IMG/VR virus record: IMGVR_UViG_3300044796_000664
Location: 1-60,293 of that record
Length of the DNA: 60,293 nucleotides
From: a virus
Taxonomy: Duplodnaviria; Caudoviricetes
Strand: one strand, 5' to 3'
Shown here: positions 1,183 to 57,953 of the stretch, in pieces
Layout of the letters: each line of letters begins with the position of its first letter
How positions within the stretch are numbered: the stretch's first letter is position 1
Program-made: the position numbers and the translations under genes
Notes under the pieces: generated by a model
What the model saw: the letters and a program-made list of their open reading frames with translations, nothing else
What the model was told of the DNA's origin: nothing
Database searches by the model: none

Positions 1183-2205
1183 ATGAGCCACGTGCTGGTT
1201 TCCTACAAGCGCGAAGACGAGCAGCGCGTGGCGCTCTTGGTGGAGGCCTTGCGCGCGCACGGGCTGGATGTGTGGTGGGACCAGCGCCTGCCCGGCGGCG
1301 AATCCTGGCGCGAGAACATCTCCTCGGCCCTGGAGGAGGCCGGCTGCGTGGTGGTGGTCTGGACGCGCAATTCGGTCGGTCCCGAGGGCGGCTTCGTACG
1401 CGACGAGGCTAGCCGGGCCAAGGCGCGCGGCGTGCTGGTGCCGATCCGGATGGACGATGTGGCGCCGCCGCTGGGCTTCGGCGAACTGCAGGCTATCGAT
1501 CTGCGCCGCTGGAAGGGCGCGGCCAAGGATCCGTTCCTGCTCGACCTCGTCGCCGCCTGCCACGCCAAGCTGGCCGGTCAGCCCGTTCCCCCGGCCAAGG
1601 GCCCCGCCGCTCGGCTGATCCAGCGCGCGCGCAACGGCTCGATCACCGCGGCGCTGCTGGCGGCCATCTGGAGCATGGTCACCAACTACACTGGCGTTCA
1701 GGACAAGGTCTGCACCATTCCCATGCCCCAGCCGGCCCTGTCGGACACCTGCGGCGCCTTGGGTGTCGGCCATAGGCCCAGCCAGGCCGAGCGGCTCGCC
1801 TGGGCGGCGCGCACGCCCGGCAGCTGCGCCGACCTGCGCGCGCACATCGCCCGGTTCCCGAACGGCGCCTACCGCTCCATGGCCGCCGACCTGCTGGCGG
1901 CGGTGACCACGAACCGCGCCGCGCAATATGCGCCCAGTCCGCGGACCGCGCGGGGATATGTCCGCCAGTCCGAGCACGGCTTCGGCTCGGCCGCCGCCGC
2001 CCAAGCCGACGCGCGCACGCGCGCGCAGGTCGACGCGACCAGCCTCTGCGCGCCCCTCGACGCCAACGAGCGGCTGACAGGTGTGCGGGTCGCGCCCCTC
2101 GCCTTTGACTGCCGGAGCGGCGGCGAAGGCGGACGGATCTGCGCGCTCGATTATTCGGCGACCTGCCTCATCGAGAGCCATCCGCTGGTCGAGCGATGCG
2201 GATGA
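1183..2205 (+). CDS. TIR-domain protein with central TM helix and Cys-containing C-terminal domain
   Basis: N-terminal VLVSYKRED...VWWD...CVVVVWTRNS...FVRDEA matches TIR_2 including the catalytic Glu; TM ITAALLAAIWSMV; GGAGG RBS upstream. Confidence 0.85.
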   Translation: MSHVLVSYKREDEQRVALLVEALRAHGLDVWWDQRLPGGESWRENISSALEEAGCVVVVWTRNSVGPEGGFVRDEASRAKARGVLVPIRMDDVAPPLGFGELQAIDLRRWKGAAKDPFLLDLVAACHAKLAGQPVPPAKGPAARLIQRARNGSITAALLAAIWSMVTNYTGVQDKVCTIPMPQPALSDTCGALGVGHRPSQAERLAWAARTPGSCADLRAHIARFPNGAYRSMAADLLAAVTTNRAAQYAPSPRTARGYVRQSEHGFGSAAAAQADARTRAQVDATSLCAPLDANERLTGVRVAPLAFDCRSGGEGGRICALDYSATCLIESHPLVERCG

Positions 2206-6511: not shown

Positions 6512-7363
6512 CTACAGCAGCAGGGCCGGCGCGGCGGCCGGCGTCAAGTTCACGCCCTTGCCGATCAGCAGCTCGGGGACGGCCGCGCCGCGTTCGGCGT
6601 CGCCGATGGAATAGCGGGTCTCGACGGGCAGGAGGTCCGCCCAGGCGAACGCGGTTCGCGTCTCGGGCACGTCGTTGATCGACAGCAGGAAGCGACCTTG
6701 CAGGCCCTCGAGGGCCTGGGCCAGGCGCTCGAAGTCGGCGCGGGCGAACAGGCCGGAGCCGTAGTCGCCTTCCGAGCCCCAGTATGGCGGATCGAGATAG
6801 AACAGCGTCCCTGGCCGGTCATAGCGCGGCAGGAAGTCCGCCCAGTCCAGGTGCTCGATGATCACGCCACCCAGCCGCTGATGGATCCGCTCGAGCCTCG
6901 GCTCCAGGCGCGCCAGGTCGAAGGCCATCGGCTGGGTTGGGTCGACGCCGAATGTGCGGCCGGCGACCTTGCCGGCGTAGGCCAGGCGCTGCAGGTAGAG
7001 GAAGCGGGCCGCGCGCTCGATGTCGGTCAAGTCCTGGATCCGCGCGCCCTTCAGCCGGTCGAACTCCACCCGCATGGCCGGCCGCCAGCGCAGCTCGCGC
7101 AGCAGCGCCCGATCATGGCGCTGGAGCACGCGGAACAGGTTCACCACGTCGCCCGAGGCGTCGTTGATCACCTCGACGCGCGGACGCTGGGCGCGGCGCA
7201 GGAACACCCCGCCCATGCCCACGAAGGGCTCGGCATAGGCGTCATGGGCCGTGGCGGCCAGGATGGCGCAGATCCGGCGCGCCAGGTGGCGCTTGCCGCC
7301 GATCCAGGGCGCAGGCGGGTCGGCCGGGGTGACCGGAATCAGGTCGGGGATTGGGCTGTCCAT
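6512..7363 (-). CDS. Dam-family (D12 class) N6-adenine DNA methyltransferase
   Basis: WIGGK, YAEPFVGMGGV, EVIND and FYLDPPY motifs. Confidence 0.92.
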   Translation of the reverse strand: MDSPIPDLIPVTPADPPAPWIGGKRHLARRICAILAATAHDAYAEPFVGMGGVFLRRAQRPRVEVINDASGDVVNLFRVLQRHDRALLRELRWRPAMRVEFDRLKGARIQDLTDIERAARFLYLQRLAYAGKVAGRTFGVDPTQPMAFDLARLEPRLERIHQRLGGVIIEHLDWADFLPRYDRPGTLFYLDPPYWGSEGDYGSGLFARADFERLAQALEGLQGRFLLSINDVPETRTAFAWADLLPVETRYSIGDAERGAAVPELLIGKGVNLTPAAAPALLL

Positions 7364-7510
7364 TGCGCAGGGTCTCTCTCGCACGATAGGAAACCGCCGC
7401 GCTCGCGAGCGTGGGGCGGCGACCGGGCCGGACGGCCGACGGTCAGTCGTGCGAGGGGGGACCTCGCGGTTCGGCGCGCGCCAACGCGCCGGACCCGCTC
7501 TCGGGCGGGC

Positions 7511-21694: not shown

Positions 21695-24388
21695 TCAGCC
21701 CGCCCTGAACGGGCTGGCTTCATTCGAGCGCCAGCCGCCCCGCGCCGCCGCATGAACGGCGTTCGCCACATGGGTGGCGTGGTCCTTCAACGCCTTCCTG
21801 AACTCGGCGGGCGACATTCCAGAGGGCCCTCCATGGACGTTGAAGTCGCCGAAGTTGAAGACGTGGCCACCGCCGCCGCCGGAGCCGAAGCCACCTCCCC
21901 GAGCAGCGAGAGCCATCAGATCCCGATTATCGCCGGCGGGGATGACCCGCTCGCCCGCGTGGATCTGGGCGATCATGTCATTGGGGACGTAGTTCGTGCC
22001 GACGTCGAGTGAGGCCAAGGCCCCATAGGCCAGCGCCGCCTCCGACATGGCCGCGCCGAAGGCGGGCGCGCCCAGGTCCAACGGGAAAGGCGCGGCTGCC
22101 ATTGATGCTACCCCTCCAGCGCCGGCAAGCCCCGCCATGGTCGATACCTGGGTGATCGCCAGGGCTTTCTGAGTGGCCGCCGCCGTCGCCGAGGCGGTCG
22201 CGTCGCTCGCCACCTTCTGCGTATTGAACAGCGCATGGATGGAAGCCATCACGGTGTGTTCCATCAGCCATTTCGACACCATCCCCGCGACGGTGTTGAC
22301 GAAGCTGCCGAGCATCTTCTGCCCGATTCCCGCCATGACCTGACCGAAGTTCTTGGCTCCCTCGGCCATCTGAAGCAGTCCCTGGCCGAAGTCCTGCACC
22401 AAGGGCGTGATGGTCTTGTCCCACTGCGCCTTGACCTGCTGAGCGGCCTGCTGTTCGGCGCTGAGGATTTTCTTGTCCGCCGCGGCGTTGGCCGCGACCT
22501 TGGCCGCCTCCATCTGGGCGAAGGCGTCTGTTTCGTCCTTAAGGGCGGCGTTGATTTGGGCGGCCGTGGCCTCTCCGGAACTGATGATCTTTCGATCGGC
22601 CAGGGTCCGGTCGGCATAGATCTGGTCCGCCGCCTCGATGGCGGCCTGGCGCTCCTGTTCGTAGAGCGCCTTCTTCTGGACGAACGCCTGCCGGGCGCTG
22701 ATCACCCCTTCCTTTTCCGCCCGATCGACGGCGGCGACCTGTTCCTCGAGCGAGTCCTGCCTAGCCTTGGCCGCGGTTTCGTCCGCCTTCACCGCGGCAT
22801 CGGACGTGCGCTTGTAGCCGGCAAAGAGGTCGTTGAAGAATGCTTGCGCGGCCCTCCGGCCGTCCGCCAGGAACTTGTCGAAGCCGGCGAGGGCCTTGTC
22901 GCTCCCGCCCAGACTCAGGCCGCCGCCGGCGCCGGAACCAGCGCCTTTCTTGCCCGCATCGGCGCCGGTCGTGCCGGTCCCTTCCTTAGGCAGGGGCGCG
23001 CCCTGAGCTTGGCTCCAGAGCTTCTTTTCCCATGCCAGATAGGCGCTGGCGTCACTGTCGGCCGACAGCCATTCATCCTGGCCCTGCTTCCAGGCCGCCG
23101 CCGCGTCCGCGCCCATCCGCTTGGCGGTGTCCACCACATCGGCCGCGACCCGCTGCGCGCCGGACGTGATGTCGCCCTCGATGGCTCCCCAATTCAGCGT
23201 AAGCGCGTCCCTGGTCACGTCGCCGAAGGTCCTGAAGGCGTCTCCCATCGTCTTGCAGCCGCCGACGACGAGATCGATCAGCGGATCCAGTACGGCATTA
23301 ACCCCCCAGATCGCGCCGTCGATCGTCTTGAACACGAAGTCGACGATCAGCCCGAGGAAGGCGAACAAGTCGGCCAGCGCCTTCACGGCCGTGCCGAGGG
23401 CGTCCATCTGATCCTTGGCCGCGCCGCCCTCCTTGTAGGACTGCACGAAGGCCCCGGTCATGTCGTTGAGGCCAGAGGTGACGTCCTTGAAGGCCGGCGC
23501 CAGGGTGTCCGTCAGGACGTTCCCCAGGCCCATCATGGCGACCTTGTTTTCCTTCTGAGCCTCCGCCAGCGCGATCCCTTTGGACGCGGCCTCCTGGTTG
23601 ACCGCGCCGTACTTTTCGATCTCGTCGTTGGCCTCGGCGATCTGCTCCTTGGTCAGGCCCAGCAGCGGGCCGATTTCCTGGATATTGCGGCCGAACATGG
23701 CCATCGCGGCGGCGATCTTGGCGGGCCCGGCCTCCATGTTCGCCAAGCCCGCAAGGGCCGCACTCAGCAGCTGCGTCTGCGTATAGGCGCCATTGACGTC
23801 GATTCCGGCGGCCTTGAAGGCGTTGGCCGCCTGGGCGCTTCCTTGCTTGGCCGCCGCGAAGCTACGGTCGACCCGCATCATGGCGGTCGATAGCGCATCC
23901 CCAGACACGCCGAACAGGGTGGCCTGGGCGTTCATCTTCTGGACTTCGCCGACGGTCAGCCCGAAGGTCTCGGCGGTCTTGAGCGACTTTTCCGCCGTTT
24001 CGCCCAGTTTGGACGCAAACTCGGCCAGTTCCCTGACCGCGAAGGCCGCGGCAATGGCCTGGCCAAGACCGGCGACGCTCTCGCGCAGGGCGCTGATCTG
24101 CTCGACGTCAGCCTTGAGTCCGGCGAACGGCGAGCTGCCCTTGCTGTCCGCCGCCAGCTTCTTCATCTCGACGTCGAGCGCGGCGATCTGGGCGCGAGCC
24201 TTGACCGTCGCCTCGGCGGCCTTCTGCATTTCCGCGCGCAGTTCGTCGGTCATGCCGCTGGTGCGGGCGGTCTTGGCGAAGCTGTTCAGATCCGCCGTGG
24301 CGGCCTTCAACTCCGACGACAGGACGGCGCGCTTCGACACCAGGTCGGCGACGTCGGCGGTGATGCTGACCGAGATCGAGTTCGCCAT
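21695..24388 (-). CDS. Tape measure protein
   Basis: 897-aa Ala-rich helical protein; C-terminal GTNYVPNDMIAQIHAGERVIP; position. Confidence 0.9.
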   Translation of the reverse strand: MANSISVSITADVADLVSKRAVLSSELKAATADLNSFAKTARTSGMTDELRAEMQKAAEATVKARAQIAALDVEMKKLAADSKGSSPFAGLKADVEQISALRESVAGLGQAIAAAFAVRELAEFASKLGETAEKSLKTAETFGLTVGEVQKMNAQATLFGVSGDALSTAMMRVDRSFAAAKQGSAQAANAFKAAGIDVNGAYTQTQLLSAALAGLANMEAGPAKIAAAMAMFGRNIQEIGPLLGLTKEQIAEANDEIEKYGAVNQEAASKGIALAEAQKENKVAMMGLGNVLTDTLAPAFKDVTSGLNDMTGAFVQSYKEGGAAKDQMDALGTAVKALADLFAFLGLIVDFVFKTIDGAIWGVNAVLDPLIDLVVGGCKTMGDAFRTFGDVTRDALTLNWGAIEGDITSGAQRVAADVVDTAKRMGADAAAAWKQGQDEWLSADSDASAYLAWEKKLWSQAQGAPLPKEGTGTTGADAGKKGAGSGAGGGLSLGGSDKALAGFDKFLADGRRAAQAFFNDLFAGYKRTSDAAVKADETAAKARQDSLEEQVAAVDRAEKEGVISARQAFVQKKALYEQERQAAIEAADQIYADRTLADRKIISSGEATAAQINAALKDETDAFAQMEAAKVAANAAADKKILSAEQQAAQQVKAQWDKTITPLVQDFGQGLLQMAEGAKNFGQVMAGIGQKMLGSFVNTVAGMVSKWLMEHTVMASIHALFNTQKVASDATASATAAATQKALAITQVSTMAGLAGAGGVASMAAAPFPLDLGAPAFGAAMSEAALAYGALASLDVGTNYVPNDMIAQIHAGERVIPAGDNRDLMALAARGGGFGSGGGGGHVFNFGDFNVHGGPSGMSPAEFRKALKDHATHVANAVHAAARGGWRSNEASPFRAG

Positions 24389-24406
24389 TCTCGGCTCCTA
24401 AAGTGT

Positions 24407-24432
24407 GAAGGGCGGCCCGAAGACCGCCCTTC
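24407..24432 (-). terminator. Hairpin closing the pentamer array transcript
   Basis: GAAGGGCGG-TCTTCGGG-CCGCCCTTC. Confidence 0.65.
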
Positions 24433-24434
24433 TT

Positions 24435-24572
24435 CAGCCTAGCGCTGCCGCGCCACGCCTCGCCGCGCCGTGCCATGACGAGCCATGGCCTGCCATGCGT
24501 TGCCTTGCCTGCCGCACCTGGCCTGGCCTCGCGCCGCCGTGCCAAGCCATGCCTTGTCTTGCCTCGCCTGCC
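24435..24572 (-). ncRNA. Putative guide-RNA array: two GGCA-initiated runs of 11 and 15 GGC-NN pentamers
   Basis: Strict 5-nt periodicity over 138 nt (4+55+4+75); flanked by hairpins; directly downstream of the RAMP operon. Confidence 0.8.
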
Positions 24573-24602
24573 ATGTTTTTCCCGGTTGAGGACGGGAAGA
24601 GC

Positions 24603-25085
24603 CTAGTCGGCGGCCTCAGGAGGGCCTTGGTCGATCATCGAGAAGACGCGACCGAGCTCGACTAGCTCCGCGTGACGTTGCCGCCACGCCTCCAACTCGG
24701 CCCAGGCCCTGGCGATGACCTGGCGCCGAAGTTCAATGCTGCTCATGGCGGTGGCGACCGAGGCGTATCCCCGCTCGCCGCCGCTCTCAACGCTGACATA
24801 GGCCCGGATCGGCTTGGCCGGCTCGACGTTCGAGCGGCTGATGTCGATGGTCAGGCTGCGGACCAGTTCGCGGGCCTGATCCTTGCGGTACTCGCCGGCG
24901 GCGACGGAATCGTCCCATTCGAAGTGACCGTGCAGCGCCGACGCCGCGTTCTTCGCGGACACCACGATCGTCTCGGGCTCCAGCAGCCCGTTGTGCCGCT
25001 TCTCCAGCCGCGCAAGCGCCTCGCCGGCCTTCTGAGCGTCTAGCTCGACCCGCGAGCCGGGACGCCAGCCATATCTCACCGGCAT
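24603..25085 (-). CDS. RAMP-associated partner protein (160 aa)
   Basis: LHGHFEWDDSVAAGEYRKDQARELVRS; overlaps the RAMP gene end. Confidence 0.8.
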   Translation of the reverse strand: MPVRYGWRPGSRVELDAQKAGEALARLEKRHNGLLEPETIVVSAKNAASALHGHFEWDDSVAAGEYRKDQARELVRSLTIDISRSNVEPAKPIRAYVSVESGGERGYASVATAMSSIELRRQVIARAWAELEAWRQRHAELVELGRVFSMIDQGPPEAAD

Positions 25086-25723
25086 GGCATCGCCTCCCCG
25101 GTGCGGGCGACGTGGAAGCGACCGGAGACACCGTCCTTTTCGGGCCTCCATTCGCCGACGCCGACGCCGAAGCCGCCGGCCTCGAACAGGCTCAGCACCT
25201 GCTCGGCGGAAAGGACGTTGGCGTTGAACTGCACCCGGAGGATCGCGCCCCAGGGCTTGAACTCGCCGCGGTGGCGGATGTCCGCCGTCCCCATGCCAAC
25301 GCGAACCATGTCCTCGCGCATCGCCGGCGGCGGACCGAGGATTTCGACCATCTCGTCGGCGATGTGGAAGCACTGGCGCGCCAGGACCTTAGTCAGGCTG
25401 CCGATGGTGGTGACAGCGGTGATTGCCGAAGCCTTGAACGCCACGGCCGGGAAGCCGAAGCGGCCGTTCTCGACGTCGTCCTCCGTCGGCCTGTCGGGCA
25501 GACCGTCGAGCCAGTAGAGGCTTTCGCAGAAGTCCTGCCACGGGTCCTTGGCGGTCTTACCGGCCGTGGCCTTCTTCATCTGTTTGGCTAGCATCTGCTC
25601 GCGCGCCTTGCGGCTCCAGGCGTGAACGATAAGGGGACCATCGCCGATGATCGGAACCTCGACCGTCTGGATATTCAGCGGCGGAAGCTCAATGGATGTG
25701 GTGGCGGATTTCGCGGCCATCAC
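25076..25723 (-). CDS. Stand-alone Cas7-like RAMP-superfamily protein
   Basis: beta1 VEVPIIGDGPLIVH; FGFPAVAFKASA resembles the Cas7/Csm3 iPgsslKG motif; C-terminal Gly-loop GGFGVGVGEWRPEKDGVSGRF. Confidence 0.75.
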   Translation of the reverse strand: MMAAKSATTSIELPPLNIQTVEVPIIGDGPLIVHAWSRKAREQMLAKQMKKATAGKTAKDPWQDFCESLYWLDGLPDRPTEDDVENGRFGFPAVAFKASAITAVTTIGSLTKVLARQCFHIADEMVEILGPPPAMREDMVRVGMGTADIRHRGEFKPWGAILRVQFNANVLSAEQVLSLFEAGGFGVGVGEWRPEKDGVSGRFHVARTGEAMPCR

Positions 25724-26178
25724 CCCGTCACTCCGAGCCGGCGGCGCGCCTCAGGCCACTCGTCCGGCATGCGTCGCCAGTCGGCGCCGAGTTCGCTTGC
25801 CGGAACGCCGGTGGACTGCTCGAGCAACTCCAGCATCGCGCTGGTTACCCGCGCATAGCGGCGGCGTTGGCGACCGTATTCGGGCTCGTCGGGCTCGAGC
25901 TGGCACAGGTCGTCGGCGATGCCCGAAAGCACGATCACCCCGACCATGATCCCCACCAGGCTCTTCGGCGTCGAGAATGAAATCGTCTCATCGATGGCGC
26001 GCAGACGGTCAACAATCTCGTTTTCCACCCGACGGAGGCGGAGGTACTCGTTGCTATCCTCTCTGAGCGATCGACGGGCCAATTCGATCTCGTTTTGCGC
26101 GCGGTCGACGGCGGAATACTCATGGCCGGCTTTTTCAAACGGACAGTCGGCGCTAGACTGCGGGGCAGCTTCGGCCAT
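25720..26178 (-). CDS. Hypothetical protein, first gene of the RAMP cassette
   Basis: AAGGAG RBS; 152 aa; GTGA overlap with the RAMP gene. Confidence 0.65.
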   Translation of the reverse strand: MAEAAPQSSADCPFEKAGHEYSAVDRAQNEIELARRSLREDSNEYLRLRRVENEIVDRLRAIDETISFSTPKSLVGIMVGVIVLSGIADDLCQLEPDEPEYGRQRRRYARVTSAMLELLEQSTGVPASELGADWRRMPDEWPEARRRLGVTG

Positions 26179-26249
26179 TGCGATCTCCTTGGGATCGTGG
26201 GTCTGAGTTAGGGGCGGTTGAGCGTTCCAGCGCTCTTCCGCCCTGTTTT

Positions 26250-26279
26250 GTCGTACACGAATGCGTTGCTGCCTGTCAA
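26250..26279 (-). promoter_or_regulatory. Putative sigma70 promoter of the RAMP cassette
   Basis: TTGACA-N18-TACGAC on the minus strand, back to back with the RHH gene. Confidence 0.45.
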
Positions 26280-26300
26280 CTCCCGTGTTACAGGAAAGTG

Positions 26301-26471
26301 ATGAAACGCCCCAGACCCGTGAAGCTCGCCCAGTTGGTCCAGCTCCGACTGACCGAAGAGATGGCGTCGGCGATTGACGACTGGCGGCGGACGCAAGCCG
26401 ACCTTCCCACGCGCTCAGAGGCGATCCGGCGTCTTTTGGCAGATGCACTTTCGCAGGCGCTTGGCAATTAG
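26301..26471 (+). CDS. Ribbon-helix-helix (CopG/Arc-like) regulator
   Basis: VQLRLTEEMASAIDDWRR...PTRSEAIRRLL. Confidence 0.8.
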   Translation: MKRPRPVKLAQLVQLRLTEEMASAIDDWRRTQADLPTRSEAIRRLLADALSQALGN

Positions 26472-26513
26472 GCCACCGCCGCCTGGGCGCCATCAACAGG
26501 CGCGCCGGCCTCC

Positions 26514-26807
26514 TCAATCCGTCACGTCGGGCAGCGGGCTTTCCCAGATCCCCTCTTCGGCCCCGGCGGCGCCGCGAACGGCGTTCGCGCTCATGGGCGG
26601 CGACCACCACTCCCGGGCGGCGAAATAGCTCGCCAGGAACCGGTCGGCCGGAGGCTCCTCGATGAGCTGGCGCTCCATTTCCGCGTGGAGCGCCCAGGTG
26701 AGGCTGCTCCACCAGTAATCCCGCGTGTGGCCGAAGTACCGGCAGGCGCGCAGGACAATCCCTTCCCAGTTGGGTTCGGGGCCTAGGCCGCCCCCGCGGC
26801 CTCCCCC
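26514..26807 (-). CDS. Tail assembly chaperone -1 frameshift extension (gpGT-like)
   Basis: Open -1 frame (PNWEGIVLRACRYFGHT...DVTD) after slippery G GGG GAG at 26801-26807. Confidence 0.65.
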   Translation of the reverse strand, partial: GGGRGGGLGPEPNWEGIVLRACRYFGHTRDYWWSSLTWALHAEMERQLIEEPPADRFLASYFAAREWWSPPMSANAVRGAAGAEEGIWESPLPDVTD

Positions 26808-27238
26808 GACGGATCGGCCTCGCCGGCGCCGTCGTTGATGAAGACGAACAAACCGGACTGGCGGCGAACCACCAGCCAGGCCGTCTGGCGTTCAGTCTCC
26901 GTCGTGCGCCAGGACTCGAATTCCTCTCGGCTCAGGGACGGATGAGCCGCCGACAGCGCGACGAACAGCACCTCCATCACCAGCCGATCGCAATCCTCGT
27001 TTGACAGGGCGTTGAAGACCTCGGCCATCGCGCCGAGGTGCCGGGTCCAGCGCGCGACGACGTCTTCGCCCTCGACCACGTCCAGGGCGGCGATGGCCGT
27101 GCTGAGGCGGCCGTTCAACTCGATCAACTGACCGCGGCACTTGCGCAGGTCGCGCCAGACCAGCTCCGGAATCGGCCATTCCTTGCCGGCCAGGACGGCG
27201 CGGGGAACTTCCGGATCGAGAGAGGCGGGTTCAGTCAT
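26783..27238 (-). CDS. Tail assembly chaperone (gpG-like)
   Basis: Between major tail protein and TMP; ends at a slippery site. Confidence 0.75.
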   Translation of the reverse strand: MTEPASLDPEVPRAVLAGKEWPIPELVWRDLRKCRGQLIELNGRLSTAIAALDVVEGEDVVARWTRHLGAMAEVFNALSNEDCDRLVMEVLFVALSAAHPSLSREEFESWRTTETERQTAWLVVRRQSGLFVFINDGAGEADPSGEAAGAA

Positions 27239-27287: not shown

Positions 27288-27668
27288 TCATCGGTGGGCG
27301 TTCGCCAGGCGGTGGGCGGCCCCTTCGATCATTTCGGGATGGTCTAGGGCCTGGGTGGTGATCTTCAGGATCAGGTCGGTGGACAGGTCCAGATCACCGA
27401 TCCGGCCCAGGACGGCGAGCAGGTCGATTCGGTACAGGCGCATGGTGCGAACATCGTCGCAGGGCACCGGCGGCTGGCGACGCAGCACCAGGTGCTGGGT
27501 GATCTTCTTGGCCACGAAGCGCCGCGCTTGGTCGATCTCCAGCTGCGACAGCTGGAGATCGGCCCCGATCTGCTCGGCGTGCACGCCGTTGGCGAGGTTC
27601 TGGAACACCAGGCGCCGGGTGCGCCCCACGATGCGGCGTTCTTCTTCGGTCATCAGCTGCTCATTCAA
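27288..27668 (-). CDS. Hypothetical protein (possible HTH)
   Basis: LANGVHAEQIGADLQLSQLEI resembles an HTH. Confidence 0.6.
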   Translation of the reverse strand: MNEQLMTEEERRIVGRTRRLVFQNLANGVHAEQIGADLQLSQLEIDQARRFVAKKITQHLVLRRQPPVPCDDVRTMRLYRIDLLAVLGRIGDLDLSTDLILKITTQALDHPEMIEGAAHRLANAHR

Positions 27669-45979: not shown

Positions 45980-46672
45980 TCATTCGCCGCCCCCGAACAG
46001 CGGCGCATCCTCGCCGCGCGCGAACCGCTGGTCGCTCGGCCGCGTCAGGCGCGCCTTGGCGCCCGGCGCGATGCCCATCAGTTCGGGCGGCATCGACGCC
46101 CGGCCCTTCCTCCAGATGAACCAGGCGTAGGCCGTGGCGCTCGACGCGCTCGGGTCATAGCGGCCCTTGACCATCGGCACCCGCTCGGCGAAGGGCGCGC
46201 AGACCGCCAGGGGCGTGTCGCCATAGAACAACGGCCACCGCCCCCCGCCCTCCAGGAACACCAGCCGCAGCAGCATCGCCACCCCGCGCCGCGCCCTGGG
46301 CAGGGCCGCGCGGACGAAGGCCTCGCCATCGCGGAACGGTGGGTTGGTGACGATCCAGTCCCAGCGACCGCCGGGCAGGTCGCCATTGATCGGCGCGTCG
46401 CCGATGAAGTCGAACACCGCGCCAGCCCCATAGGGGTGGATGTCCGAGCCGGCGACCTGGCCGAAGTAGTCCTTCAGCCCGTGCATCATGTGCCCCTCGC
46501 CGCACGCCGGCTCCCAGCAGGTCCACGGGCCGCCCGGATCGAGCCGGCTGATCAGCTCGCCCCCAGCCCGCGCCGCCCACGGCGGGGTTGGGAAGAAATC
46601 CAGATCCTCCGCCCGCGTCTGCAGGCGCTGGGCCATGACCGAGGTGAAGCCCGCGGGCCGATCGCTGCTCAT
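45980..46672 (-). CDS. Phage amino (N6A/N4C) DNA methyltransferase
   Basis: DFFPTPPW, WEPACGEG, IVTNPPF. Confidence 0.85.
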   Translation of the reverse strand: MSSDRPAGFTSVMAQRLQTRAEDLDFFPTPPWAARAGGELISRLDPGGPWTCWEPACGEGHMMHGLKDYFGQVAGSDIHPYGAGAVFDFIGDAPINGDLPGGRWDWIVTNPPFRDGEAFVRAALPRARRGVAMLLRLVFLEGGGRWPLFYGDTPLAVCAPFAERVPMVKGRYDPSASSATAYAWFIWRKGRASMPPELMGIAPGAKARLTRPSDQRFARGEDAPLFGGGE

Positions 46673-52900: not shown

Positions 52901-54501
52901 CCGCCGCCATCACCCCCCAGGCCCTGCGCGCCAACGCCGAGCTGCTGCGCTGCCTGAACACCGGCGAGGGCGCCCACACGCTCAAGACCCTGGCCGAGGC
53001 ACTCGGCCGAGACCTGTCCAACCTGCGCAAGACCGTCGCCACGCTGGAAAAGCAAGGCCTGCTCGGCGGGCTCCCCGGCGGCCTGATCATCCTCACCCCG
53101 GCTGGCCGAACGGCGGCGGTCTCGCTGCCCGCTCCCGCGCCCAAAGCGAACGGCGTTCGCGATGAACGCTTCGACGAGCCGATGACCTGGCTGCGCCACG
53201 ACCAGCTCGTCCCCCATCCCAAGAACCCGCGCCGTGAGTTCGATCCGGTCGCGCTCGACGAGCTGCGCCAATCGATCCTGCTGGCCGACGGTCTGCTGCA
53301 GAACCTGGTGGTGACGCCCAAGCCCGACGATCCGGAGCATTTCTGGATCCTTGCCGGCCATCGTCGCTGGCGCGCCATCGGGCAGGCGATCGACGAGGGT
53401 GACTGGCCGCCGCACCGTCCGCTGCCCTGCCAGGTCCGCGCCGACCAGGCCCCGCGCGAGCGGCTATCCCTGGCGCTGATGGAAAACATCCAGCGCACCG
53501 ACCTGACCCCGCTGGAGGAGGCCCAGGCCTATCACACCCTGGCCAGCTCCGGCGCGCGCGGCGAGCCCGGCCTGACCAACGTGGAGATCGCCGACATGGT
53601 GGGCCGCACCCCGCGCCACGTCCAGATGCGCCGCCAGCTGCTCGACCTTCCCGACGAGGCCAAGGCCGACCTCGCCGCCGGCAAACTCAACGTCACCCAG
53701 GCCCGCGCCAAGGTGCAGACGCCGAAGGCGCTTCCGCCCTTGGCGGCCCTGGCTCTCGCGGAACTGGCCGACAAGATCGCCCGCGATCCGGACCCTGACG
53801 GACGCGCCTCGACCCGGGTCAACGCTTTCGAATCGGCCGAAGCGCGCCAGCTCGTGCGCGCCGGCATGTGCGGTTTCTTCGTCTCCGGTACAGGCGCCGA
53901 AATGCGCGACTGCGCCGTTCTGACAAGCTCCGGCCGAGAGTGGGCCGACGCCCAGGTGCGGGCGGCGAAGACGATCGCCCAGCTTATCGGCCGCCTCCGC
54001 GCCGCCGCCGGCAAGCCGGTCAACCTCGCAGAGGGTCAATACAGCACGCCCTGGCTGAACGTCCCACTCGCCGCCGCGCCCGTCATCCCGGCCAAAGCGT
54101 CCCCTTCCGTCACCACCGGGCCTGTCCCGGTGGCCCATGCCGAGAACCCGCTCAGGTCACCGCCGAAGCCCGCCGATCCCTTCATGGACCAGATCCGCGA
54201 AGCCGCCAGGGAGCCCGAGGACGCCGCCGCCTTCGCCGATGACCTCCAGGCCGTCGCCCAGATGACCGACACCGTGCGCGACATCCTCGCCTTCAATCGG
54301 GGCCGCGAGACCGCGGCCTGGGCGCACACGCCTGACAACGCCGCCCTCGCCAGCCTGACGATCACGGCGCTGCGCAAGGGCGACGCCTCTTGGGCCATGG
54401 CCTGCCTGGCCCACCTTCGCCGGCGCGCCGGCGCCATGGGGTACGGTGACGAGATCGCCAAGGCCATGGTCCGCGCCGGCCTGGAGCCGGTCGAGCCATG
54501 A
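52897..54501 (+). CDS. ParB/Spo0J-like protein with N-terminal wHTH
   Basis: NPRREF, GLLQNLVV, ILAGHRRWRA, LMENIQRTDLTPLEEA, HTH. Confidence 0.88.
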   Translation: MTAAITPQALRANAELLRCLNTGEGAHTLKTLAEALGRDLSNLRKTVATLEKQGLLGGLPGGLIILTPAGRTAAVSLPAPAPKANGVRDERFDEPMTWLRHDQLVPHPKNPRREFDPVALDELRQSILLADGLLQNLVVTPKPDDPEHFWILAGHRRWRAIGQAIDEGDWPPHRPLPCQVRADQAPRERLSLALMENIQRTDLTPLEEAQAYHTLASSGARGEPGLTNVEIADMVGRTPRHVQMRRQLLDLPDEAKADLAAGKLNVTQARAKVQTPKALPPLAALALAELADKIARDPDPDGRASTRVNAFESAEARQLVRAGMCGFFVSGTGAEMRDCAVLTSSGREWADAQVRAAKTIAQLIGRLRAAAGKPVNLAEGQYSTPWLNVPLAAAPVIPAKASPSVTTGPVPVAHAENPLRSPPKPADPFMDQIREAAREPEDAAAFADDLQAVAQMTDTVRDILAFNRGRETAAWAHTPDNAALASLTITALRKGDASWAMACLAHLRRRAGAMGYGDEIAKAMVRAGLEPVEP

Positions 54502-56471
54502 CCCCGGACATCATCATCGACCTGTTCGCCGGCGGCGGCGGGACCTCGACCGGGATCGAAGCCGCGACCGGCCGCTCCCCGGACATCGCCGTCAACCACG
54601 ACGCCGAGGCCCTGGCCCTGCATGCGGCCAATCATCCGGACACGCTGCATCTGTGCGACGACATCCGCCAGATCGACGTGGTCGCCTTGCTCAGCCGGCC
54701 GGAATTCCTCGGCCGGCGCGTGGGCCTGTTGTGGGCCTCGCCGGACTGCAAGGATCACTCCAAGGCCAAGGGCGGCGTGCCCAAGGACAAGAACATCCGC
54801 GGCCTGGCCTGGGAGGTGCTGCGCTGGACCGCGGCGATCCGCCGGGCCACCGGCAAGCCGCCCCGGACCATCGCCCTGGAGAACGTCGAGGAGTTCGCCG
54901 ACTGGGGTCCGATCCACCGCTATGGCAAGAACGCCGGCCGGGTGATGAAGCGCCGGCGCAAGGAGACCTTCCGTCTCTGGAAGGCCAACCTGGAGAGCCT
55001 CGGCGGTCGCCTCGAGGAACGCGAACTGGTCGCGGCGAACTACGGCGCGCCGACCACCCGCAAGCGGCTCTATGTGGTCTGCCGGTTCGACGGCGATCCG
55101 ATCGTCTGGCCGGAGCCCACCCATGCGCCGCGCCACGCCAAGGGCCGTCAGGGCGAGCTGTTCGATGCCGGGCAGGGGCTGATACCCTACCGCGCCGCAT
55201 CCGACATCATCGACTGGACGCAGCCGATTCCCTCGATCTTCGGCCGCCGGAAATCCCTGGCGCCCAAGACCGAGCGCCGCATCGCCCGCGGCATCGACCG
55301 GTTCGTGATCCGAGCCCAGCGGCCGTTCATCATCCCGGTGACCCACAGCACCGGCGGCGACCGGGCCTACGACGCCGGCGATCCGCTGCGAACGGCCACC
55401 GCAGCCAAGGGCGGCGACTTCCAGCTGGTCGCGCCCACCTTCCTGCCGGTGACCCACGCCGGCGACGATCGGGCGCACGGTCCGGAGGATCAGCTGCGCA
55501 CGGTGACGGGCGCGCATCGTGGCGAACTGGCGGTCGGCGCCGCCTTTCTCAACCGCACCGACATGCAGAGCGCGGCCGAACGGAACGGCATCCACTCGCC
55601 GGGCGAGCCGCTGCGGACCTTCACCAGTGCGGGCGGTTTCGCAGCGACCACCGCCTACCTTGGCCGCCAGTTCGGCTCGACAGTCAGCGGGCGCGACCTG
55701 ACCGAGCCGCATCCTGCGGTGATGACGGACGGCGCGGGCGGCAAGAGCCAGGTGGTGGCGGCCCACATCGCGCGCCAGTTCGGCGGGTCGGTCGGTTCTG
55801 ACCTCGCCGAGCCGGTCGGGACCGTCATGCCAGGCGGCAGCGGCAAGACCCAGCTCGTCGCCCCGGTGATCGACAAATACTACGCCACCGGCGTCGCCCA
55901 GGAGGCGGCCCGGCCGCTCGATGCGGTGACCGCCAAGGCCCGCTTCGGCCTGACCGGGGCCTTCGTGGAGCAGGCCAACACCGGCGTGATCGGGCATGCG
56001 GCCGACAAGCCAGTGTCGACCATCCTGGCCGCCGGATCGCACCAGCGCCTGGTCGGCGCCGACCTGGAGCCATGGGACGCGGCCCTGGCCGCCATCGGCG
56101 CGCCGCCCGGATCGAAGCGGCGCGAGGTGCTGGCCTTCCTCTGGTCGCATTTCGGCGCGCCCACCGAGGCCGAGTGGGCCGATCCGGCGGCGACGATCCA
56201 GGGGCGGCTGCGGTTCGGCCTGGTGATCCTCGACGGCGCCACTTGGCAGATCGTCGACATCGGCATGCGCATGCTGACCCCGCGCGAGCTCTACAGCGCC
56301 CAGGGATTCCCGCCGGGCTACGTCATCGAACTGACCCTGGCGGACGGCCGCACGCTGACCAAGACCGCACAGACCCGGATGGCCGGGAACTCGGTCTCGC
56401 CACCGGTGGCGGCGGCGATCATCGGGGCCAACTGCGCATGGCTGCGCGAGCAGCGACAGGTGGCCGCATGA
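54498..56471 (+). CDS. C5-cytosine DNA methyltransferase with repeat-expanded variable region
   Basis: DLFAGGGG, SPDC, ENV, RKRL, RML, GNSV. Confidence 0.92.
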   Translation: MTPDIIIDLFAGGGGTSTGIEAATGRSPDIAVNHDAEALALHAANHPDTLHLCDDIRQIDVVALLSRPEFLGRRVGLLWASPDCKDHSKAKGGVPKDKNIRGLAWEVLRWTAAIRRATGKPPRTIALENVEEFADWGPIHRYGKNAGRVMKRRRKETFRLWKANLESLGGRLEERELVAANYGAPTTRKRLYVVCRFDGDPIVWPEPTHAPRHAKGRQGELFDAGQGLIPYRAASDIIDWTQPIPSIFGRRKSLAPKTERRIARGIDRFVIRAQRPFIIPVTHSTGGDRAYDAGDPLRTATAAKGGDFQLVAPTFLPVTHAGDDRAHGPEDQLRTVTGAHRGELAVGAAFLNRTDMQSAAERNGIHSPGEPLRTFTSAGGFAATTAYLGRQFGSTVSGRDLTEPHPAVMTDGAGGKSQVVAAHIARQFGGSVGSDLAEPVGTVMPGGSGKTQLVAPVIDKYYATGVAQEAARPLDAVTAKARFGLTGAFVEQANTGVIGHAADKPVSTILAAGSHQRLVGADLEPWDAALAAIGAPPGSKRREVLAFLWSHFGAPTEAEWADPAATIQGRLRFGLVILDGATWQIVDIGMRMLTPRELYSAQGFPPGYVIELTLADGRTLTKTAQTRMAGNSVSPPVAAAIIGANCAWLREQRQVAA

Positions 56472-57879: not shown

Positions 57880-57953
57880 CCGAGAAGCCAGCCGGACCCG
57901 GGTCCGGGGACGGGTCCGGGGACGGGTCCGGGTCCGGGGACGGGTCCGGCTGA
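57867..57953 (+). CDS. 28-aa Gly-Ser-Asp repeat peptide
   Basis: MGSLTEKPAGPGSGDGSGDGSGSGDGSG, built from GGGTCC/GGGGAC hexamers. Confidence 0.4.
   Translation: MGSLTEKPAGPGSGDGSGDGSGSGDGSG

Follow-up and report, generated by a model that had tools for sequence, protein, structure and literature searches.

VIPR (Viral Interference Programmable Repeat) systems have been described in 2026 bioRxiv preprints (10.64898/2026.04.26.720920, 10.64898/2026.04.26.720927, and 10.64898/2026.10.15.759431), whose experiments concern mainly one clade of E. coli phages. In Escherichia phage SUSP1, one Vipr protomer is bound per RNA pentamer, the GGY triplet being sequestered and the NN dinucleotide displayed (10.64898/2026.04.26.720927), and the filament binds double-stranded DNA in triplex fashion, reads two bases, skips one, and silences transcription. 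The guides (vrRNAs) have a published size of 9–16 repeats, internal degeneracy of their units is common, and natural targets are called at 80% NN, with no self-hits at that level reported in the sections cited here (10.64898/2026.04.26.720920). The legend of fig. S18 of the same preprint describes staggered arrays, in which the last nucleotide of one vrRNA is also the first of the following one. The accessory (vap) proteins, which include vap1–6, are predicted DNA binders according to the VIPR preprint. Here, we analyze a locus of the Caudoviricetes record IMGVR_UViG_3300044796_000664 (60,293 nt, G+C 69%; this whole stretch is hereafter called the window), in which a Vipr homolog, its partner genes, and a GGYNN array lie upstream of the gene encoding the tape-measure protein (TMP). 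We hold it to be highly probable that this locus is a complete VIPR insert in the tail module, whose guides would silence the TMP genes of sibling phages while sparing the phage's own copy.

With the viral staggered-array VIPR, as far as the fig. S18 legend describes it, the locus has in common a Vipr RAMP, an accessory gene, and GGYNN guides placed head to tail with neither spacer nor tail. Its 4-nt junction (GGYA/GGY) fits the 1-nt overlap, a likeness that comes from the text of the legend and that does not by itself establish a clade or a type. The locus differs by having two guides only, by lying in a tail module, and by standing immediately upstream of its apparent target gene family. With the type II VIPR of SUSP1 (PDB 36pp), it shares, judging from the parts of the preprints cited, a homologous protein, the G-loop and thumb contacts, the GGY/NN code, guides of 9–16 units, and wobble-aligned coding targets. 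On the other hand, SUSP1 VIPR possesses a conserved pseudoknot 3′ tail that the window lacks and targets a satellite recombinase, whereas the predicted targets of the present locus are the TMP genes of sibling phages; its accessory protein, vap1, is probably different from that of the window (phrog_15946).

Type III CRISPR-Cas RAMPs (Csm3/Cmr4) and type VII Cas7 display the same fold as the window Vipr (Z 10–10.9, root mean square deviation [rmsd] 3.6–4.6 Å over ~150 residues), and both kinds of protein polymerize on guide RNA with a fixed period. However, they share only 6–15% identity with the window Vipr, and the window lacks further cas genes, a CRISPR array, and an adaptation module. Indeed, PADLOC identified no Cas protein among the 62 open reading frames (ORFs) of the window, and no CRISPR-like direct-repeat array is present there, in agreement with a preliminary description of the region made from the DNA letters. 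The period of VIPR is 5 nt with two read bases, that of Cas7-type CRISPR 6 nt with five read bases, and the VIPR target is, in the preprint sections used, DNA bound by triplex, unlike that of CRISPR Cas7-family RAMPs. Membership in CRISPR-Cas type III was therefore rejected, because neither a CRISPR array nor Cas10, Cas5, or Cas6 partners are found in the window and the fold alone is shared. Finally, prophage superinfection immunity and CRISPRi-type roadblocks resemble the locus in the predicted outcome, a related incoming phage being silenced in a sequence-specific manner and without being cleaved, but superinfection immunity uses a repressor and its operator at the immunity region, while specificity here would reside in an RNA code directed against a structural gene.

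Results

A Vipr homolog with conserved GGY contacts

The product of the central gene of the cassette had been proposed to be a solo Cas7-like RAMP, in a system possibly identical to VIPR. Both proposals hold: VIPR is in print, the protein is homologous to the solved SUSP1 Vipr, and its modeled fold is that of Csm3 and Cas7. Vipr belongs to no Pfam family and matches phrog_4652 (E = 5e-25). Searched as a single sequence with phmmer against all PDB chain sequences, it has a sole match, 36pp_D "SUSP1 Vipr protein" (E = 0.0017), limited to the C-terminal 60–80 residues, and is thus a distant relative. A profile made of the query and 59 diverse homologs matches the same chain at E = 4.5e-13 over profile positions 131–208, which correspond to the thumb-to-G-loop part (...yRgeF..W...GvGeWRP...fGrF).

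The G-loop of the window Vipr reads G183-x3-G187-x-G189-E-W-R-P. In the section of the preprint dealing with these contacts, the residues of SUSP1 Vipr touching GGY are H17, R138, D177, W178, and R179 (10.64898/2026.04.26.720927). By profile alignment, the last four correspond to R151, E190, W191, and R192, which among 60 family members are conserved in 60, 59 (as Glu or Asp), 44, and 60 sequences, respectively. We infer from the P-x-L-x-H motif alone that H33 (53/60) would be the counterpart of H17. The earlier suggestion that each subunit binds a constant GGC and exposes the variable NN is the mechanism published for Vipr (section 5 of 10.64898/2026.04.26.720927), and the residues that contact GGY are conserved here.

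The AlphaFold2 (AF2) model of Vipr reaches a pLDDT of 95.5 and a pTM of 0.89. The Foldseek comparison that had been suggested for this protein gave Csm3, Cmr6, type VII Cas7, and Cas7-11 as top PDB matches, with E values from 6e-5; 39 PDB matches were obtained at E ≤ 0.001, and among the matches listed, all are RAMPs of the Csm3/Cmr/Cas7 type. With VIA-align, the model superimposes on Csm3 (9g9g_D) with a Z of 10.9 and an rmsd of 3.6 Å over 153 residues. The Vipr family comprises 3144 clusters at 50% identity with E ≤ 0.001, and the closest relatives are 83–91% identical. Homologs annotated as hypothetical occur in 27 Mycobacterium, 5 Gordonia, and 1 Pseudomonas phage records, such as Gordonia phage ODay (10358-10933), Mycobacterium phage Donkeykong (37391-37960), and Pseudomonas phage vB_Pae_LESphi2 (4906-5478).

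An array of two guides

The array occupies 138 nt (24435-24572, minus strand) and reads exactly as transcribed in the preliminary description. Counted by hand, it contains 28 units, whose triplet is GGY in 22 cases and ends in C or T in all 28, two of these units being the 4-nt GGCA. It is the sole region with at least 7/10 in-phase GGY pentamers on either strand of the 60,293-bp window. The number of GGY pentamers per 140-nt segment peaks there at 11, versus a background mean of 3.4–3.5 (sd 1.1–1.2), and TRF detects a period of 5.

While the array had been regarded as a single guide, it is better described as two, since a GGYAGGY junction divides it. The two junctions are 59 nt apart (5 × 11 + 4), and a degenerate junction, GGCAGCG, lies 64 nt (5 × 12 + 4) past the second one. 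The boundaries deduced in this way give a guide 1 of 11 units and a guide 2 of 12 units, which follow one another with no intervening sequence; a single hairpin, devoid of the T-run that the terminator scan calls for, closes the array.

These features were compared in 109 related loci, 29 from genomes and 80 from viral contigs. As had been anticipated for homologous loci, periodic GGY arrays accompany vipr in 92 of them (22/29 genome and 70/80 viral loci), all on the vipr strand and none of the 109 on the opposite one; several of the array-less loci are cut by contig ends, L001 for instance ending 535 nt after vipr. The vipr strands carry 782 GGYAGGY junctions, versus 194 for the opposite strands, and 276 of the 381 junction spacings of 30–100 nt are 4 mod 5, the commonest being 49, 54, 59, and 44. 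In L010, the array ends likewise with a junction, ~10 nt, and a GGCGG..CCGCC hairpin. Within what the fig. S18 legend states, the array of the window fits the staggered type.

Predicted guide targets in tape-measure genes

Following the preprint, each GGY was converted into one wildcard and both strands were scanned (1-nt-skip rule). Guide 2 matches codons 3–14 of the TMP gene of related phages with just its 12 units, the next three units of the array giving no match. When five related TMP loci were scanned, the best score was 23/24, at the TMP start of a related phage contig (L034), other skip rules yielding 15–16 at most, and 0/1000 permutations reached 23. Over the same codons, the NN score is 21/24 for L032 and L038, 20/24 for L033 and L036, 19/24 for L043, and 17/24 for the phage's own gene. 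All six relatives score above the own TMP start, five of them at 83% NN or more.

This difference can be traced to individual codons. The own TMP gene has TCG at codon 4 versus AAY in 6/6 relatives, TCG at codon 6 versus AGC or GCC in the relatives, and AGC at codon 8 versus TCN in 5/6 relatives; codons 6 and 8 encode serine in the window and in L034 but belong to opposite codon families. The poorer fit of guide 2 to the own copy is due to three differing codons among those the guide specifies; at one of these, the own copy uses the opposite serine codon family from all five relatives that have serine at that position. In the matches of both guides, the skipped bases are at codon position 3 (wobble-aligned), and few synonymous changes other than a serine codon-family swap would evade such a wobble-blind code. 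No Vipr gene or array is seen in L032, L033, L036, L038, and L043, and phages of this kind are the rivals that guide 2 would silence.

The best match of guide 1 is inside the own TMP gene (22446-22478), with 19/22 informative bases (86% NN). The next best matches in the window score 14–15, skip rules of 0, 2, and 3 give 15–16 at most, and 0/1000 permutations of the unit order reach 19. The mismatches, three in number, affect successive units in the middle of the guide; the phage encodes DKKILSAEQQA, and the guide specifies DKKI-(F/L)-T-G-EQQA. Of 401 genomes of one family (that of G001), two contain a guide 1 match when up to 3 mismatches are allowed; each of these matches has 3 mismatches and an uninformative context, and we treat them as chance; in the protein database, the internal TMP region has 1 other homolog (44% identity), which is without the guide-1 allele. 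Near-self matching was considered as a general rule and rejected, as 4 of 163 junction-delimited guides (64 loci) reach 0.8 in their own ~7-kb locus and 6 exceed all 100 permutations, which is a weak trend at most.

Elsewhere among the related loci, an 11-unit guide of a Clostridia metagenome-assembled genome (L015:3765) matches the Vipr-bearing locus L019:6154 at 19/22 NN under the 1-nt-skip rule, and the two may be a cross-targeting pair.

Partner genes

The 160-aa protein encoded downstream of vipr matches phrog_15946 (E = 7e-22), has neither a Pfam family nor a PDB sequence match, and is labeled "hypothetical" in the Atlas. As a homolog adjoins vipr in 98/109 related loci (26/29 from genomes and 72/80 from viral contigs), we consider that it is the accessory, vap-like gene of this clade. 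Its AF2 model has a pLDDT of 90, and its fold matches are weak and mostly to winged-helix DNA-binding domains (Foldseek E ≥ 0.33, VIA Z ≤ 6.2). This winged-helix-like model agrees loosely with the DNA-binding function predicted for vap proteins and should be seen as a weak lead rather than a finding.

The situation of the 152-aa gene, which the preliminary description had included in the system, is different. A homolog was detected in L034 only (28% identity, E = 2e-6), as a 176-aa ORF at the same position, and in none of the other 108 related loci. The protein has no Pfam or PHROG match and is a "hypothetical protein" in the Atlas. Judged by this distribution, the 152-aa gene does not belong to the conserved parts of VIPR.

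A different VIPR cassette at the same junction in a relative

The contig carrying the best guide 2 target, L034, belongs to a related phage whose TMP is 69% identical at the N-terminus and 62% at the C-terminus. It bears a cassette of its own (L034:690-2532), which likewise precedes the TMP gene at the chaperone/TMP junction. This cassette is made of a divergent ribbon-helix-helix (RHH) gene, the 176-aa homolog of the 152-aa gene, an HNH endonuclease gene (Pfam E = 2.6e-5), Vipr, one array of ~12 units, and a hairpin. Its Vipr is closely related to SUSP1 Vipr over the full length (E = 2.7e-32 with PDB 36pp_D). In the other TMP relatives, the chaperone genes are followed directly by the TMP gene, with no cassette between them. 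Reciprocal targeting was tried and rejected, the L034 guide scoring 16/24 against the window, which is not significant.

Cassette layout and phage context

The elements lie where the preliminary description had placed them (Table 1). Along the minus strand, an intergenic region with a TTGACA hexamer is followed by the ORFs of 152, 214/215, and 160 aa, a hairpin, the 138-nt array, a GC-rich hairpin, and the ribosome-binding site and gene of TMP. The three ORFs, described earlier as coupled, do overlap stop to start; all are intact, with a coding-type G+C content at third codon positions (GC3) of 0.76–0.86.

Table 1. Coordinates of the cassette, its guides, and the related sites of the tape-measure gene in the window.
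Feature	Position	Strand	Basis or remark
Divergent RHH-like regulator, 56 aa	26301..26471	+	Pfam RHH_1, phrog_4738
Divergent control region, RHH gene to operon	26179..26300	.	TTGACA hexamer 26274-26279 (minus); putative promoter
152-aa protein, first operon gene	25720..26178	-	No Pfam or PHROG match
vipr, minimal Cas7-like RAMP	25076..25720	-	214 aa from ATG; 215 aa from GTG at 25723
vap-like accessory gene, 160 aa	24603..25085	-	Start overlaps vipr stop
Hairpin 5′ of array, UUCCCG-loop-CGGGAA	24579..24598	-	Sequence
vrRNA 1 (guide 1), junction GGCA (24569-24572) + 11 GGYNN units	24514..24572	-	Junction spacing
vrRNA 2 (guide 2), junction GGCA (24510-24513) + 12 GGYNN units	24450..24513	-	Junction spacing, target match
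Degenerate closing units (24435-24449), spacer, terminal GC-rich hairpin (24408-24431)	24408..24449	-	Directly before TMP ribosome-binding site
Own TMP codons 3-14, homologous to the predicted vrRNA 2 target of rivals	24347..24382	-	17/24 NN
vrRNA 1 near-self match inside TMP gene	22446..22478	-	19/22 NN; skipped bases at codon position 3
Tape-measure gene, 897 aa, immediately downstream of array	21695..24388	-	phrog_8125, phrog_2854 "tail length tape measure protein"

The flanking assignments of the preliminary description are upheld in part. The gene downstream of the array is a TMP gene, as stated, while the label of tail chaperone for 26783-27238 and 27288-27668 comes from position only: these ORFs have no Pfam or PHROG annotation, and their homologs precede TMP in relatives. 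The divergent RHH regulator is present and matches phrog_4738 "transcriptional repressor" (E = 4.2e-6), although its Pfam RHH_1 match (E = 0.0023, 18.3 bits) falls under the 20.5-bit cut-off; homologs occupy the same divergent position in L009, L010, L011, L026, and L034 and in 10/80 viral loci. What had been called a TTGACA promoter is the hexamer only, since a consensus scan of 24300-26800 gave no complete sigma-70-type promoter. The same scan returned no terminator site, and Rfam gave nothing relevant.

Metatranscriptome contigs without errors extend over 25828-26469, from the RHH gene across the intergenic region into the 5′ part of the 152-aa gene, and also over parts of TMP; the contig depth of 6.5–8.5 at 25828-26469 is the highest of the portion compared and does not prove transcription.

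The window is a phage record with terminase, portal, protease, major capsid, tail, tape-measure, and CI-like repressor genes, and the phage is temperate and siphovirus-like. At the edge of the window, a 340-aa ORF (1183-2205, plus strand) has an N-terminal TIR-like PADLOC match (SAVED_TIR, Aga_TIR, and related models, E down to 4.7e-9) and may be a defense or counter-defense gene outside the tail module. Three DNA methyltransferase genes identified with PHROG and PADLOC (6512-7384 and 45980-46672, minus strand; 54498-56471, plus strand) suggest a broad anti-restriction protection. A perfect 18-nt tandem repeat (CGGGTCCGGGGACGGGTC, 2.2 copies) is found at 57893-57949, inside a period-6 tract.

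Discussion

VIPR itself, staggered arrays, wobble alignment, and phage-versus-phage targeting are already in print in the preprint sections considered here. Within this framework, the most likely role of the locus, as predicted from its sequence, is to silence tail-gene expression of superinfecting or co-resident sibling phages. The cassette would be expressed from its own RHH-controlled promoter, each Vipr subunit would hold the GGY of one pentamer and present its NN, and the resulting filament would pair with double-stranded DNA at two of every three bases and block transcription; the last two steps are published for SUSP1 and are extended here to the present protein. The guides would then attach to sibling TMP genes at two places, the 5′ end and an internal site, and block tail-gene expression, while the own TMP would escape via three codons per site. 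The preliminary description had seen a candidate anti-phage system; as the likely targets are the TMP genes of rival phages, the system is better viewed as a means of inter-phage competition than of host defense.

Several observations weigh against this scheme. No exact 1-nt-skip target of either guide was found in the viral and metagenome contig collections. When one base was relaxed, guide 2 recovered the L034 contig only, so that the best foreign match is 23/24 on a single contig. The related TMP starts share ancestry with the own one, which raises the baseline score. No contig of the RNA library covers the array (one metatranscriptome run); contigs cannot show transcription, and neither their presence nor their absence is used here. 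The conserved structured 3′ tail that follows each repeat tract in the SUSP1 clade is absent, which counts against membership in that clade and not against VIPR, because tail-less staggered arrays are another VIPR architecture according to the fig. S18 legend. Lastly, the sole strong match of guide 1 is in the phage's own gene, at 86% NN, above the 80% threshold for natural targets in the preprint section cited.

This last point makes self-regulation the main rival explanation. The guides would act on the own TMP gene, guide 1 binding inside it, and in the lysogen a VIPR under the control of its own promoter would silence or time the tail genes. Such a role, favored also by the position of the array directly upstream of the own TMP gene and by the fact that no better match of guide 1 than this wobble-aligned one, out of reach of all permutations, was obtained anywhere searched, is nevertheless unlikely in our opinion. 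The three mismatches of guide 1 are in consecutive central units, guide 2 has a higher score on each of the six relatives than on the own gene, and silencing an essential tail gene of its own would be costly to the phage at induction. Furthermore, the preprints, in the parts relied on, report self scores below non-self ones and a loss of silencing when NN pairing is lost.

It is far less probable that Vipr and the array are a decayed or orphan relic, that is, inherited passengers with no living targets whose TMP matches reflect old shared ancestry. The absence of an exact target from four collection scans, the 6/28 units that are not GGY, and the degenerate final junction would fit with decay. 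However, the three operon ORFs are intact with GC3 values typical of coding sequences, the contact residues are conserved, unit degeneracy is common in VIPR arrays as far as the preprint goes, and five of the six relatives match guide 2 at 83% NN or more. That the period-5 GGC would not be a guide array at all, and would instead be an artifact of base composition or of coding in a genome of 69% G+C, or a repeat that binds a protein and has nothing to do with the RAMP gene, seems to us hardly conceivable. High G+C makes GGC common and several spurious ORFs overlap the region, but no other such region was found in the 120 kb that the two strands make up, a coding sequence would not have a period of 5, arrays stand beside the homologous genes in 92/109 loci and always on the strand of the gene, and the NN code gives wobble-aligned gene matches at a skip of 1 only.

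Silencing of sibling TMP genes with sparing of self being retained, a wider view of the junction can be proposed, which we advance tentatively and with less than even confidence. The guide set would be aimed at sibling TMP, and the chaperone/TMP junction would be a swap site for different VIPR clades, the clade of the window in one phage and a SUSP1-like Vipr with an HNH gene in L034. Kin-versus-kin VIPR warfare over a structural gene would result, with possible residual self-binding by guide 1.

The present analysis leaves the VIPR concept unaltered. It brings to light a well-populated second Vipr clade with its own conserved accessory protein, for which the cultured phages bearing Vipr homologs are candidate tractable models, and a junction rule (GGYAGGY, spacing 5k + 4) that lets guides be parsed from sequence alone. 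It also predicts that a prophage silences the TMP of close relatives, with a difference between self and non-self amounting to three codons, and thereby adds to VIPR a self/non-self case testable with the reporter assays published in the preprints.

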